A stretch of DNA of 35,415 nucleotides, taken from the IMG/VR virus record IMGVR_UViG_2711768052_000009; one strand, written 5' to 3'. A model generated the notes under the pieces. That model was not told the origin of the DNA. It did not search any database and saw only the letters and a list, made by a program, of their open reading frames with translations. The position numbers and the translations under genes are program-made. This document shows, one piece after another, positions 14,683-25,006 of this stretch (position 1 is the stretch's first letter; the number at the start of each line of letters is the position of its first letter). The stretch comes from a virus (lineage: Duplodnaviria > Heunggongvirae > Uroviricota > Caudoviricetes).

Positions 14683-14859
14683 TGTTCATTCCACGGACAA
14701 AAACAGAGAAAGGAAACGACAAAGGCCAAAAAGCCCGTTTTCAGCACCTGTCGTTTCCTTTCTTTTCAGGGGGTATTTTAAATAAAAACATTAAGTTACG
14801 ACGAAGAAGAACGGAAACACCTTAAACCGGAAAATTTTCATAAATAGCGAAAACCCGCG
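14683..14859 (-). promoter_or_regulatory. cosB (terminase small-subunit binding region with R-site repeats)
   Basis: Between cosN and the Nu1 start: inverted copies of TGTCGTTTCCT at 14711-14721 (as aggaaacgaca) and 14749-14759, and a GGTGTTTCCG-like element at 14812-14821, resembling lambda R3/R2/R1. Confidence 0.7.
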
Positions 14860-20953: not shown

Positions 20954-21069
20954 AAACGTCCCCGTTTAGCGCAGAAGTCACCGGAGTTGTTCAGGCTCCG
21001 GTGACATAATTATGCCGTGTTGATTTCCCAAAATCAAAATCGATAGAATTGCTCCTTCTTAAAACACTT

Positions 21070-21867
21070 TTACTCTCTGGAAGCTTTTCTTATCTCTCTT
21101 GGTGTTATATTAAAACGATTATGAAATCTTTCAGTAAAACGAGAAGGACACTTATAACCATTTTCTCTGGCAATCTCGCTTATAGGTTTTACCGTCGTTT
21201 GTATAGCAGACAACGCATTATTTAACCTCACATCGTCCAGTATACTTTGGAAACTTACCCCCTCGCTTGCTAGACGGCGATGTAATGTAGAAACAGAAAT
21301 GTAGAGATATCGAGCAACCTTGTTTGCTGTCCATTTTGTGCCGGGTTCGGATAGCAGCAGGTTATAACAACGACTTATCAATGATTGTTTACTATATGAT
21401 AAAAGTAAATGATTAACATGATTCACTCCTAACGAAAGTAGAACGCCCATTGCTAAGTGCTCCTGAATTTTAGTTGAGAAGCCTCGGGAAACAGATGTTT
21501 TTAGTTGCTCCCAACAATATATTAACTCAGGATTCTGAGGTAAAAATAAACTTGTTTTGTTACGTATTTGATCAGTTACCGTATAAAGTTTTTGGAAACT
21601 CTCAATTAAATCAATGGGTAAGTAAAGCATTTCTGCAAGATAAAGCCCTGCTTCAGGATAATTCTCAATATAAAATTCATAACCACAAGGAAATAATATT
21701 ATTTGATTATTATCAACAGTTAAAGTATGCGTCTCCCAATTGATAACTTTCTTTCCCTGACGGATACGACACAAAGCTGGCATAAGAGGCTTAACCCTAT
21801 GAATCTCATGATGTTTATGCATCCGTATTTCTTCGATCTTTAAGTTAGTCTTACCTCTTGCCAGCAT
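21070..21867 (-). CDS. ybcM: AraC/XylS-family transcriptional regulator (YbcM-like)
   Basis: 265 aa; C-terminal AraC-type HTH ([45 protein letters not shown]...); AT-rich coding sequence. Confidence 0.88.
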
Positions 21868-21876
21868 ACTCTCACC

Positions 21877-22428
21877 CTACTTTATCTCATAAACTGGTGT
21901 TATCTCAGCGGTTGCGATTTTATTAGCATTAAGCATATAACCAACTAACGCTCCGCTGGAGTTAGAATCTACAGGAATCTTTTCAGTTTTTAGAGCCCAT
22001 ACTTTAAACTGGTAATGATGTGGTTTATCTCCTTTAGGAGGACATGCGCCACCAAACCCAGCATAGCCAAAATCATTTCGGCCTTGAACAGCACCAGTCG
22101 GCAGTTTTGTTCCATCACGTCTCCCTGCATCAACGGGCAAATATGTTACTGTTGCTGGAATATTAACAACAGTCCAATGCCACCAACCACTGCCTGTAGG
22201 TGCATCTGGATCATATACAGTTACGGCAAAGCTTTTGGTACCTTCAGGAACACCAGACCAGGTTAATGAGGGCGATGTATTACCACCTTCACACCCAAAT
22301 CCAGAAAAGACATGAGACGTTGTAAGTTGCTCTCCTGTTTTTATTTCATTACTAGTGACCTGAAATGCTGCAGCCTGCGCAGAAAATGTTATGAATGCCA
22401 ATACAGTTGAAACGATAAGTGTTTTCAT
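21877..22428 (-). CDS. ybcL: Periplasmic PEBP/RKIP-family protein (YbcL-like)
   Basis: 183 aa with signal peptide MKTLIVSTVLAFITFSAQAAA; PEBP-like motifs (YDPDAP...GWWHW...PPKGDKPHHYQFKVWAL). Confidence 0.88.
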   Translation of the reverse strand: MKTLIVSTVLAFITFSAQAAAFQVTSNEIKTGEQLTTSHVFSGFGCEGGNTSPSLTWSGVPEGTKSFAVTVYDPDAPTGSGWWHWTVVNIPATVTYLPVDAGRRDGTKLPTGAVQGRNDFGYAGFGGACPPKGDKPHHYQFKVWALKTEKIPVDSNSSGALVGYMLNANKIATAEITPVYEIK

Positions 22429-22892
22429 AAAAACCTCTTTGTTATGACCTATCGTTATTTTATTTGATATTCCTTTATCTCATTATGCATAAAGGCGCAA
22501 TGTTCATGCAAAAGCAATCACAATTGTACCCCCAACCCAATTATTTGCCACAATATACACAAAGCACATTGATACTATCTAAAAACTCTGCTTTATTATT
22601 AGTAATACCTACGAAAGTCGGTGTTATTTTTTAACCTACCATTCAAAATACGTGACATACACCATTTTGCTCATAATAATTTGTCACGTATTTTCAGTAT
22701 TTGAATCTGCGACCAAGAGTTCTCACCTAACAAATGATTAAGATTGTATAGCTCATTTACTACCCCAATACAGCCGTACAAAACTCGCTTGTGGGAGCAA
22801 ACAAAGTAATTACCCATTAAGTTTCGTCAAAGATAATTAATTCTGTCTTGCACTTTATCACCATAGCATAACTTAAAATCCGAGATCATTAT

Positions 22893-24419
22893 TTAGAAAT
22901 AAATCTCACCATCAACCATATATTTGAGAGCACTTATCGCCTGCTGGGCGGATATTACTTTCATTAAAGGATAGTGTTTAAAAACAATGCCATTCATAAA
23001 ATAGATATCACAGGTTTTATTATCCGTATTAATTATGATTTTTTCGAATGTTTTATAGGCAAGTGTACGGCATAACTCTCGTCCATTTTTACTGGTTAAG
23101 TCAATAGCATAAAAATCACTGAATGAATTTACACCTTTACTCTTCAAAGTTTTCAATGATACCGAAGCCCTTCGTAATTCCTTATCTAATAGTCTTATTT
23201 TCTCTGCTATAGCGGTAACTTCAGGCGCGACAGACAATGCAACGATTAAATTATTAATTTTCATCTGAAGCTCAATAATTTTTAACTCTAAAGTTTCATT
23301 AGCATCTTTCTTGTTTTCAACTGGTTGAATTTTGCTACAATTAAAAAGCAATTCATTAATGATATTATAATCAACCAAATCTCTTTTTATTGATGGCCTG
23401 TCACATCGATGTAATCTTCTCATCGGACAAACATAATAGCCATGCAAACTTCCAGATACCGCATGAACAATCATGGTATTACCACAAGCCTCACACTTCA
23501 TAACTGTTCGAAGTAGATTTATTAGCATAGGATTCTTGCTACTATTGCTAATACCAAAAGGTGCCAACCGAATTTCCTGTACAGCGTAAAACAAATCATC
23601 TGATATGACTCTGGGATAATAGCCAGCGATTTCACTTATCCCTTTCCCTCTTGCACGATATGAAGGTACGCATATACCTATCAGAGCTTTATTCGCTAAT
23701 AATTTTTCAATTACAGAAGGTCCCCATGCACTTTCTTTTCCTGAGAAATTCTTTACAGCATGATCATTTAAATACTTGGCTATTGCATTCAATGAGCGCC
23801 TTTCCATCCTGAGTTTAAAAATTAGCTCAATAGTTTTCACCCTGTCGGGGTCTGGAACAAAAGCCGTTCTTTTGTCATCTAAGGAGAGCCATCTCGGACA
23901 AGACGCCGTCATAATCGTACCTGATTCCAGTGCATCCTGCCGTTTTTTCTTCCATGATAATTTAACCCGACTTGACTTTATCTCGCTTTCTTCATTTGCC
24001 CTTTGTGCTATAAGTATGGCTTTTATTAATGAATATGGCTCATTCAAAGAGTCAATATTATAGACTGTATTGTCGCAAAGAGTTATAACATCAATACCGT
24101 GATTCAAAATCAATTTCAGACGTTCAATCGCTTCACCGACTTTTTCTCTTGAAAGTCTGTCCAGACTTTCAACTAACAATGTAGTTCCTGGCAATATATA
24201 ACCATGCTCTATAGCATCTAAAAATTCCGAAAAAGCTCCTGATTGTGCATGCTTTCCTTTGAATGCACTTAATCCTAAATCTTCATATGTTATGGTATCA
24301 AGATAATAATCACTATTTACCTTTAACCATTCAGCAATAAGTCTTCTCTGTCGGTTTAATGAGTCGCCAGACATCTGACCTGGTGATGAAAATCGCATAT
24401 ATGCTATGGCTTTTTTCAT
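22893..24419 (-). CDS. ybcK: Large serine recombinase (resolvase/invertase N-terminal catalytic domain, recombinase domain, zinc ribbon; YbcK-like)
   Basis: 508 aa; N-terminal AIAYMRFSSPGQ with candidate catalytic Ser; Cys cluster CEACGN...CPMRRLHRCD; AT-rich. Confidence 0.85.
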   Translation of the reverse strand: MKKAIAYMRFSSPGQMSGDSLNRQRRLIAEWLKVNSDYYLDTITYEDLGLSAFKGKHAQSGAFSEFLDAIEHGYILPGTTLLVESLDRLSREKVGEAIERLKLILNHGIDVITLCDNTVYNIDSLNEPYSLIKAILIAQRANEESEIKSSRVKLSWKKKRQDALESGTIMTASCPRWLSLDDKRTAFVPDPDRVKTIELIFKLRMERRSLNAIAKYLNDHAVKNFSGKESAWGPSVIEKLLANKALIGICVPSYRARGKGISEIAGYYPRVISDDLFYAVQEIRLAPFGISNSSKNPMLINLLRTVMKCEACGNTMIVHAVSGSLHGYYVCPMRRLHRCDRPSIKRDLVDYNIINELLFNCSKIQPVENKKDANETLELKIIELQMKINNLIVALSVAPEVTAIAEKIRLLDKELRRASVSLKTLKSKGVNSFSDFYAIDLTSKNGRELCRTLAYKTFEKIIINTDNKTCDIYFMNGIVFKHYPLMKVISAQQAISALKYMVDGEIYF

Positions 24420-24599
24420 GGTGACACCTGCTAACGTATGCTTTTATAAACCTTAGTGGTGGGATATAATTTTTGTTTAATTTTTATTTAAAAAGACAAT
24501 TAAGGTCACATTATCTTGAATATACAACAATAATCGTATTGCAATTTTCTTACGCCATAATCTTGAAAGCACAAAAGAATACATAAAAAATAAAGACAT

Positions 24600-24643
24600 T
24601 AACAAAAAGCATAAAACGAGGCTCATATAAATATAAGAGCCTC
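24600..24643 (-). terminator. Rho-independent terminator downstream of emrE
   Basis: GAGGCTC...GAGCCTC 7-bp inverted repeat (24618-24643) followed on the minus strand by GTTTTATGCTTTTTGTT. Confidence 0.55.
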
Positions 24644-24673
24644 CATATTTTAGTCGTTTAGAAACAAATTATT

Positions 24674-25006
24674 TTAATGTGGTGTGCTTCGTGACAATAA
24701 ATTAATAACCAACACACCGGCACAAATCAACATCATGCCTATAATGGCTGGCAGGTCCAGCCGTTGGCCGAAAAATCCCCATGACAGTAAGCTAATCAGG
24801 ACAATACCGACTCCTGACCAGATAGCATAAGCAATCCCTGTAGGAATATAAGCCAGCGTCTGAGCTAATAACCAGAATGATGCACAATAACAAATAATTG
24901 TACCAACAGATGGCCATAACCGTGTAAAACCTTCTGAAAACTTCATTAAGGTTGTACCAATGACCTCTGCAAGTATTGCACCACCAAGATAAATATAAGG
25001 GTTCAT
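24674..25006 (-). CDS. emrE: SMR-family multidrug efflux transporter EmrE
   Basis: 110 aa from ATG 25004-25006: MNPYIYLGGAILAEVIGTTLMKFSEGFTRLWPSVGTIICYCASFWLLAQTLAYIPTGIAYAIWSGVGIVLISLLSWGFFGQRLDLPAIIGMMLICAGVLVINLLSRSTPH; four TM helices with the conserved Glu in TM1. Confidence 0.92.
   Translation of the reverse strand: MNPYIYLGGAILAEVIGTTLMKFSEGFTRLWPSVGTIICYCASFWLLAQTLAYIPTGIAYAIWSGVGIVLISLLSWGFFGQRLDLPAIIGMMLICAGVLVINLLSRSTPH

Follow-up and report, generated by a model that had tools for sequence, protein, structure and literature searches.

A 50-bp inverted repeat beside the large serine recombinase gene ybcK of a DLP12-type prophage as a candidate attP-type attachment site

A dimer of a large serine recombinase (LSR) contacts 50 bp of its phage attachment site, attP, in which each half-site is 25 bp long and carries a 9-bp zinc-ribbon domain (ZD) motif at positions 16-24, as described for the Listeria A118/LI integrase (4KIS; Rutherford et al. 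2013, PMC3783163). The proteobacterial LSRs Kp01, Vh19, Ec03, Kp03, Cs56 and Bm99, for which attB partners are known and activity has been measured, have attP sites with inverted outer arms of 8-13 bp around an asymmetric core of 25-32 bp, 44-54 bp in total, as computed here from the sequences listed by Durrant et al. 2022 (PMC10083194). Here we describe a perfect inverted repeat of the same general layout, which lies beside ybcK, an LSR gene of E. coli.

The DNA analysed (the window, 35,415 nucleotides of IMG/VR virus record IMGVR_UViG_2711768052_000009) is a DLP12-type lambdoid prophage of E. coli, and its ybcK-ybcL spacer is 100% identical to that of strain Combat11I9. The local genes are, in order, ren, emrE, ylcJ, ybcK, ybcL, ybcM and ybcN, all on the minus strand (Table 1), and the emrE-to-ybcM block has a G+C content of 30-40% compared with about 50% for the phage backbone. 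The complete lambda-like phage PhiR34_1 carries the same block together with its own tyrosine integrase and a Pin-type invertase, and YbcK is thus an accessory recombinase there. The 48-aa open reading frame that ends in the repeat spacer is probably not a gene; roles as a directionality factor or leader peptide were considered and set aside, as it has no homologues and matches no family. Defence-system models gave zero matches.

Table 1. Position of the inverted repeat and of neighbouring features in the window
Feature	Position	Strand	Remarks
emrE	24674-25006	-	
ylcJ	24477-24626	-	
ybcK, large serine recombinase, 508 aa	22893-24419	-	catalytic, recombinase, zinc ribbon with coiled-coil insert, extra C-terminal beta domain
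Orphan segment X, 268 bp	22584-22851	-	carries the repeat and the 48-aa ORF; confined to the ybcK-X-ybcL arrangement
48-aa ORF ending in the repeat spacer	22671-22817	-	hypothetical in phage PhiR34_1
Right arm, TGTCACGTATTTT	22682-22694		positions 13-25 of the second putative half-site
Asymmetric spacer, 24 bp, TACACCATTTTG followed by CTCATAATAATT	22658-22681		3/12 inner positions symmetric
Left arm, AAAATACGTGACA	22645-22657		positions 25-13 of a putative P-type half-site
Promoter-like GTGACA-17-AATAAT (10/12)	22652-22680	+	consensus match only; -35 in the left arm, -10 in the spacer; antisense into ybcK
ybcL	21877-22428	-	
ybcM, AraC-type regulator gene	21070-21867	-	

A first-pass annotation of the window had reported perfect 13-bp arms separated by 24 bp in the AT-rich region between ybcK and ybcL, and a repeat finder returned the same coordinates and sequence, with 13/13 complementary positions and a total span of 50 bp; the sequence reads cattcAAAATACGTGACAtacaccattttgctcataataattTGTCACGTATTTTcag. 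With one mismatch allowed the repeat grows to 14/15 (22643-22696), and its symmetry centre falls between 22669 (G) and 22670 (C). The surroundings have about 35% GC; the repeat is separated by 198 nt from the ybcK stop and by 216 nt from the downstream ybcL start at 22428, in agreement with the roughly 220 bp first given, and its K-12 MG1655 equivalent is approximately U00096.3 570627-570676 by coordinate conversion. The initial opinion that such a repeat is unlikely by chance was borne out as well: in 200 dinucleotide-preserving shuffles, perfect 13-nt inverted repeats whose arms lay at most 60 nt apart numbered 0.01 per window on average, and the expectation for the AT-rich sub-region 21000-24700 was likewise 0.01 (1000 shuffles). 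The repeat is real and non-random.

Only one other perfect 13-nt inverted repeat with a gap of at most 60 nt was found in the window, at 14707-14763, where 15-nt arms are separated by a 27-nt gap (AGAAAGGAAACGACA, 27 nt, TGTCGTTTCCTTTCT). We take it to be cosB R3-I1-R2 of the lambda left end, with the Nu1 start ATGGAAGTCAACAAAAAGCAG after it on the minus strand; it probably comprises two binding sites for terminase (Nu1). Like the repeat beside ybcK it is perfect and long-spaced, and it illustrates that such repeats in these phages may be bound by proteins and need not be hairpins. On the other hand, cosB belongs to a different protein and has an IHF site in its spacer, whereas inspection by eye found no IHF consensus in the 24-bp spacer near ybcK.

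For comparison, the best inverted repeat was computed for each attP sequence of the characterised LSRs listed by Durrant et al. The total span was 42-54 bp in 11 of the 16 computed sites, among them Kp01 (arms 13/14, spacer 25, total 53 bp), Vh19 (11/12, 30, 54 bp), Kp03 (9/9, 26, 44 bp), Ec03 (8/8, 28, 44 bp), Ec04 (7/8, 26, 42 bp), Cs56 (8/9, 32, 50 bp), Bm99 (9/10, 30, 50 bp), Bxb1 (7/7, 34, 48 bp) and Cc91, Nm60 and No67 (48-54 bp). With arms of 13/13, a spacer of 24 and a total of 50 bp, the site beside ybcK has perfect arms that are longer than most and a slightly shorter spacer. Its dyad symmetry occupies the distal positions 13-25 of two 25-bp half-sites, with the distal arm motif CACGTATTT, and asymmetric cores are also found in the attP sites of Vh19 and Cs56. 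The A118/LI site is alike in its 50-bp length, its 25-bp half-sites and the distal position of its 9-bp motif, yet the A118/LI protein is too distant from YbcK for a sequence match and we claim no correspondence at the level of motifs. The site lies 3' of its gene, whereas several of the Durrant sites abut the 5' end of theirs, as read from the listed Si74 and Me99 sequences. Att sites predicted by Durrant et al. for an LSR 66% identical to YbcK (cluster10915) were left out of the comparison, the 26-bp terminator-like core being probably that of the host element's own integrase.

YbcK itself is an intact LSR with the architecture of the large serine integrases. It contains the Pfam domains Resolvase, Recombinase and Zn_ribbon_recom in the same order as in the recombinases of Kp01, Vh19, Ec03, Kp03, Cs56 and Bm99, and is 30-36% identical to characterised proteobacterial LSRs (Vh19 36%, E 2e-61). 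The catalytic residues R9 and S11, the ESLDRLSRE motif and the four zinc-ribbon cysteines are invariant across 21 YbcK homologues, and YbcK matches PHROG 95 (integrase) with an E value of 4e-120. Sequence searches alone gave no relatives of solved structure, but the best Foldseek matches of the AlphaFold model (mean pLDDT 79) are full-length SPbeta, phiC31, Bxb1 and LI integrases on their att sites, including 4kis_C, with E values down to 1e-18. In the model, long helices at residues 368-397 and 401-427 follow the zinc-ribbon strands, where LSRs have their coiled-coil motif. Beyond the coiled coil the modelled protein ends in a small beta domain (residues 458-507), and the C-terminal third (residues 348-508, window 22893-23375) matches a separate family, phrog_2371, of unknown function. 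The sequence TGTCACATCGATGTAATC at 23399-23416, inside ybcK, is a PhoB ChIP-seq site that was reported as intragenic (PMC10294691). The PhoB and sigma-54 sites reported near ybcK were discounted for the repeat since they lie elsewhere (window ~23399 and inside emrE, respectively).

The adjacency to ybcK, the LSR architecture of YbcK and a site geometry within the range of the family lead us to read the repeat as an intact attP-type LSR attachment site, most likely of the adjacent YbcK or of the YbcK lineage. We propose this tentatively, at somewhat less than an even chance. That a repeat far beyond chance lies so near an LSR gene with intact catalytic, recombinase and zinc ribbon/coiled-coil domains speaks for it, whereas the central dinucleotide speaks against it. 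Taking the centre of symmetry as the crossover returns the known central dinucleotides of Bxb1 (GT) and phiC31 (TT), but for the site beside ybcK it yields GC, a palindrome that would give the site no polarity. Since the actual crossover point may be displaced by 1 bp, the palindromic centre weakens the attP claim without overturning it. The inner halves of the repeat are without symmetry (3/12), which also counts against the proposal, and half-sites joined to foreign DNA, as in attL or attR, were found neither in 5426 complete E. coli genomes, where all 675 matches are full length, nor in IMG/VR (40 contigs) or JGI metagenomes (16 of 16 copies intact). Together with the lack of co-travel with ybcK described below, the asymmetric inner core, the palindromic centre and the failure of these searches to find a partner or hybrid site weaken the attP reading.

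The first-pass annotation had named a recombination or inversion site among its candidates. As an attP-type LSR site this idea is the best supported of the three that it offered, but the inversion part does not hold, because the repeat is single and its spacer has one orientation throughout. Small serine recombinases act at crossover sites (hix/gix, res site I) of 26-28 bp, with 12-bp arms around a core of 2-4 bp; at least two copies are present, accompanied by accessory sites or an enhancer. The repeat shares with these crossover sites a dyad symmetry suited, putatively, to a serine recombinase dimer, but it differs in being 50 bp long and single. Further copies of the 13-mer, which the annotation had proposed to look for, are limited in the window to two matches with at most two mismatches, at 21558 and 33988, a chance number, and every genome with segment X has a single copy. 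A DNA invertase or resolvase crossover site was accordingly rejected, given the 24-bp spacer, the one copy per genome and the invariant spacer orientation in 42 sequences.

How the repeat is distributed was analysed from the arrangement of the genes around it. In strain ETEC1749, emrE-ybcL-ybcM lies beside fliE without ybcK, and the locus is homologous to the window from ybcM to about 22583, then again from about 24665, at the emrE stop. Of 5426 complete E. coli genomes, 2628 have the same ybcK-less arrangement, with coverage of the junction query of 80% or more. Compared with it, ylcJ-ybcK and segment X together look like 2.08 kb inserted between emrE and ybcL (22584-24664 against locus L082 5001-5168). 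The ends of this insertion, at 22584 and 24664, show no clear target duplication and no inverted-repeat relationship, either to each other or to the arms. A 12/13 direct repeat at 22892 and 24657, TTTAGAAA(T/C)AAAT, was considered as attL/attR at the insertion edges and dismissed as being at chance level. Conversely, phages Turner and 4A7 and prophage L123 have ren-emrE-ylcJ-ybcK with YbcK proteins 92-99.8% identical, but their homology to the window ends at 22852, 41 bp past the ybcK stop, and resumes at 21038 just past ybcM; the repeat is missing from all three, as is any substitute attP-like repeat. Since segment X is missing from both kinds of locus, it is found only in the DLP12-type arrangement. 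The first-pass annotation had regarded a lack of conservation in related prophages as evidence against a function, and that evidence is now partly at hand, for the repeat is absent from related phages whose YbcK proteins are 97.6-99.8% identical.

Within the DLP12-type arrangement the repeat is uniform. Segment X is present in 675 of the 5426 complete genomes, always full length and in single copy, and is at least 99% identical in 673 of the 675; no other homologues were found in E. coli genomes, in collections of phages and plasmids or, even when translations were compared, in the loci fetched for comparison. Arms, spacer, orientation and context are all the same in the 40 IMG/VR and 16 JGI metagenome contigs, apart from an IS5 insertion 84 bp off in one and a small indel in another. 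The former, in IMG/VR contig L102, begins with GGAAGGTGCGAATAAG, presumably the IS5 end, at a CTAA target on the ybcK side of the repeat (~22729). Variants of the repeat were not encountered, but there are only about 14 variable sites in 400 flanking bp, and because nearly all of the approximately 730 copies are at least 99% identical, conservation is uninformative on constraint and covariation impossible.

The slot downstream of ybcK holds differing cargo between the sharp common breakpoints 22852 and 21038 (L128 4567-5784; L129 4567-6184): ybcL-ybcM in the window, a gene for an alpha/beta hydrolase in 4A7, and in Turner and L123 other small genes, one of which has a P22_AR_C domain. Directly past the slot and upstream of ybcN, a G+C-rich hairpin at 20977-21005 (GTCACCGGAG-N9-CTCCGGTGAC) is shared by Turner and 4A7; it is possibly a backbone terminator of the tR2 type.

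Orthologues of YbcK with 37-60% identity are likewise prophage passengers, for example in a lambdoid nin region (loci L127 and L004) and in a P2-like prophage (L132, Yersinia); Ewingella, Citrobacter and Pantoea supplied further ones. No attP-like repeat lies within 500 bp of any of these genes, and the short repeats downstream are no more frequent than expected by chance. No ybcL or ybcM was found near the orthologues in loci L004-L020 or in the L132 gene list. Several repeats of other kinds were seen at these loci. A 16-nt perfect inverted repeat, ATAAAAATACTGTATA, is present in L127 (5508-5523 and 6065-6080) and in L004 (9508-9523 and 10063-10078); one arm overlaps the 3' end of the gene for the 59-60% identical orthologue and the other a LexA-box-like sequence, TACTGTTTATTTATACAGTA, upstream of dinI. 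These arms flank a 540-bp segment with a KGG-domain gene, which could be an invertible segment or a recombination scar. The 16-nt repeat has AAAATAC in common with the repeat beside ybcK, and was treated as unrelated. In Pantoea coffeiphila (L020 9562-12476) a tandem 1.25-kb unit directly follows the 49% identical orthologue, each unit opening with iteron-like TTGGTTC repeats in inverted-repeat arrangement with a 46-nt spacer, and in Lonsdalea (L017 10044-10139) three 12-13-mer copies (CCTTTTGAGACT / AGTCTTAAAAGGT) of alternating orientation lie about 520-620 bp past the 38% identical orthologue. A hairpin of a metagenomic phage (L131) that has ATACGTGACA in common with the repeat was regarded as a single unrelated instance.

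The position of the repeat relative to known transcripts bears on the remaining explanations. Cappable-seq places the ybcL start site at U00096.2 570094 (window 22450), and genomic SELEX gave a predicted ybcLM promoter, GTGGCA-17-TACAAT (window 22551-22523), together with H-NS binding. As both lie downstream of the repeat, it is upstream of the ybcL promoters and outside the ybcL leader, and the long-loop attenuator suggested at first is unsupported, also because no published 3' end falls there. Instead, a hairpin where the ybcK transcript ends could be a weak intrinsic terminator, perhaps working in both directions, or could stabilise the RNA, and so insulate ybcK from ybcL-ybcM; the location between two co-directional gene units, with the ybcK stop behind it and the ybcL promoter and start site still ahead, would suit such a role. 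In the sense RNA the 13-bp stem is joined by an inner 6-bp helix that depends on G-U pairs (-17 kcal/mol for 50 nt, -18.9 with flanks, z = -2.9), whereas the antisense RNA, on which the inner helix is impossible, forms the 13-bp stem with an open 24-nt loop (-14.9 kcal/mol, z = -4.0). AAAAUA and UAUUUU frame the stem, as the A and U tracts of bidirectional terminators do downstream of genes, and a canonical hairpin, CCCTCCC-N10-GGGAGGG, follows the 59% identical orthologue in L127. However, terminators have loops of 3-8 nt, and here a 7-nt apical loop arises only via three G-U pairs within a 24-nt spacer; the stem is interrupted and AU/GU-rich (4 G-C in the 9 inner bp), the U tract is just four U's, all paired in the stem, and the tail after them is GAAUGG. 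A consensus terminator scan left the site uncalled, which together with the atypical spacer was counted in favour of the attP reading, and an Rfam scan gave chance-level miRNA and snoRNA matches with E above 3. The Term-seq supplement of Adams et al. 2021 (PMC7815308) lists no RNA 3' end at the repeat, although ybcK is Rho-silenced and its expression low. Moreover, a perfect 13-bp DNA palindrome of exactly 50 bp is unneeded for a terminator, and we consider this explanation unlikely.

The repeat had also been suggested as an operator of the AraC-family regulator YbcM. More generally, it might be a two-part operator for YbcM or another transcription factor, either bracketing the antisense promoter-like sequence of Table 1, whose predicted start lies under the right arm, or acting far upstream of the ybcL promoter. 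The nearby AraC-family gene fits this, as does the genomic SELEX result that places RNA polymerase as well as H-NS in the ybcK-ybcL spacer, but promoter-like matches are no commoner here than by chance, and the published Cappable-seq mapping reports no sense-strand start site near the repeat. With 37 bp (about 3.5 helical turns) between their centres, the arms would lie on opposite faces of the helix, which is unusual for a dimeric regulator. The 2628 emrE-ybcL-ybcM loci without the repeat weigh most directly on the YbcM proposal: segment X, in which the repeat resides, is missing from them, and the repeat is thus outside the ancestral ybcL/ybcM control region. A YbcM operator is accordingly disfavoured, and an operator of any kind appears to us quite improbable. 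Finally, the palindrome could be functionless, a relic of the element from which segment X came or a quasi-palindrome perfected by template switching, and perfect only because the segment is young. As X is an orphan without homologue and its copies are nearly identical, perfection needs no selection, and signs of use (hybrid sites, inversion, mapped RNA ends) were not found. Set against this are the very low chance expectation and the coincidence that would be required to put an exact 50-bp LSR-type geometry beside an LSR gene. A lack of function is on balance unlikely as well.

If the attP reading is correct, a YbcK dimer would bind the 50-bp site, with each zinc-ribbon domain and its preceding linker reading one 13-bp outer arm (half-site positions 13-25) and the recombinase and catalytic domains sitting on the asymmetric 24-bp core. 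The core would be cut at its centre, at about 22669/22670, for strand exchange with a partner attB. The YbcK module would then be an accessory or fossil integration module, whose site stays unsplit because these phages integrate by their own tyrosine integrase. In K-12 the module is probably idle, since a Rho-dependent terminator in the ybcK leader keeps the gene silent and the region binds H-NS. A bolder version, in which YbcK and its site form an active platform with which lambdoid phages capture or swap cargo downstream of ybcK (integron-like, LSR-based), or a second, integrase-independent route to lysogeny, seems to us highly improbable. Variable cargo does start just past ybcK in different phages, but the cargo breakpoints at 22852 and 21038 miss the repeat and no recombinant half-sites were found.

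Nothing about the repeat falls outside known kinds. If inactive, it is a harmless relic or a hairpin in an accessory-gene region silenced by H-NS and Rho. YbcK is, however, one of the site-specific recombinases of E. coli K-12, with uncharacterised substrate and function, and the 50-bp candidate site offers a concrete substrate for it. If active, YbcK and the site would constitute an orthogonal pair of serine integrase and attP from a model organism, and some lambda-like phages would carry a second integration module, which would be relevant to prophage mosaicism and to how stable ybcK-expressing strains are.
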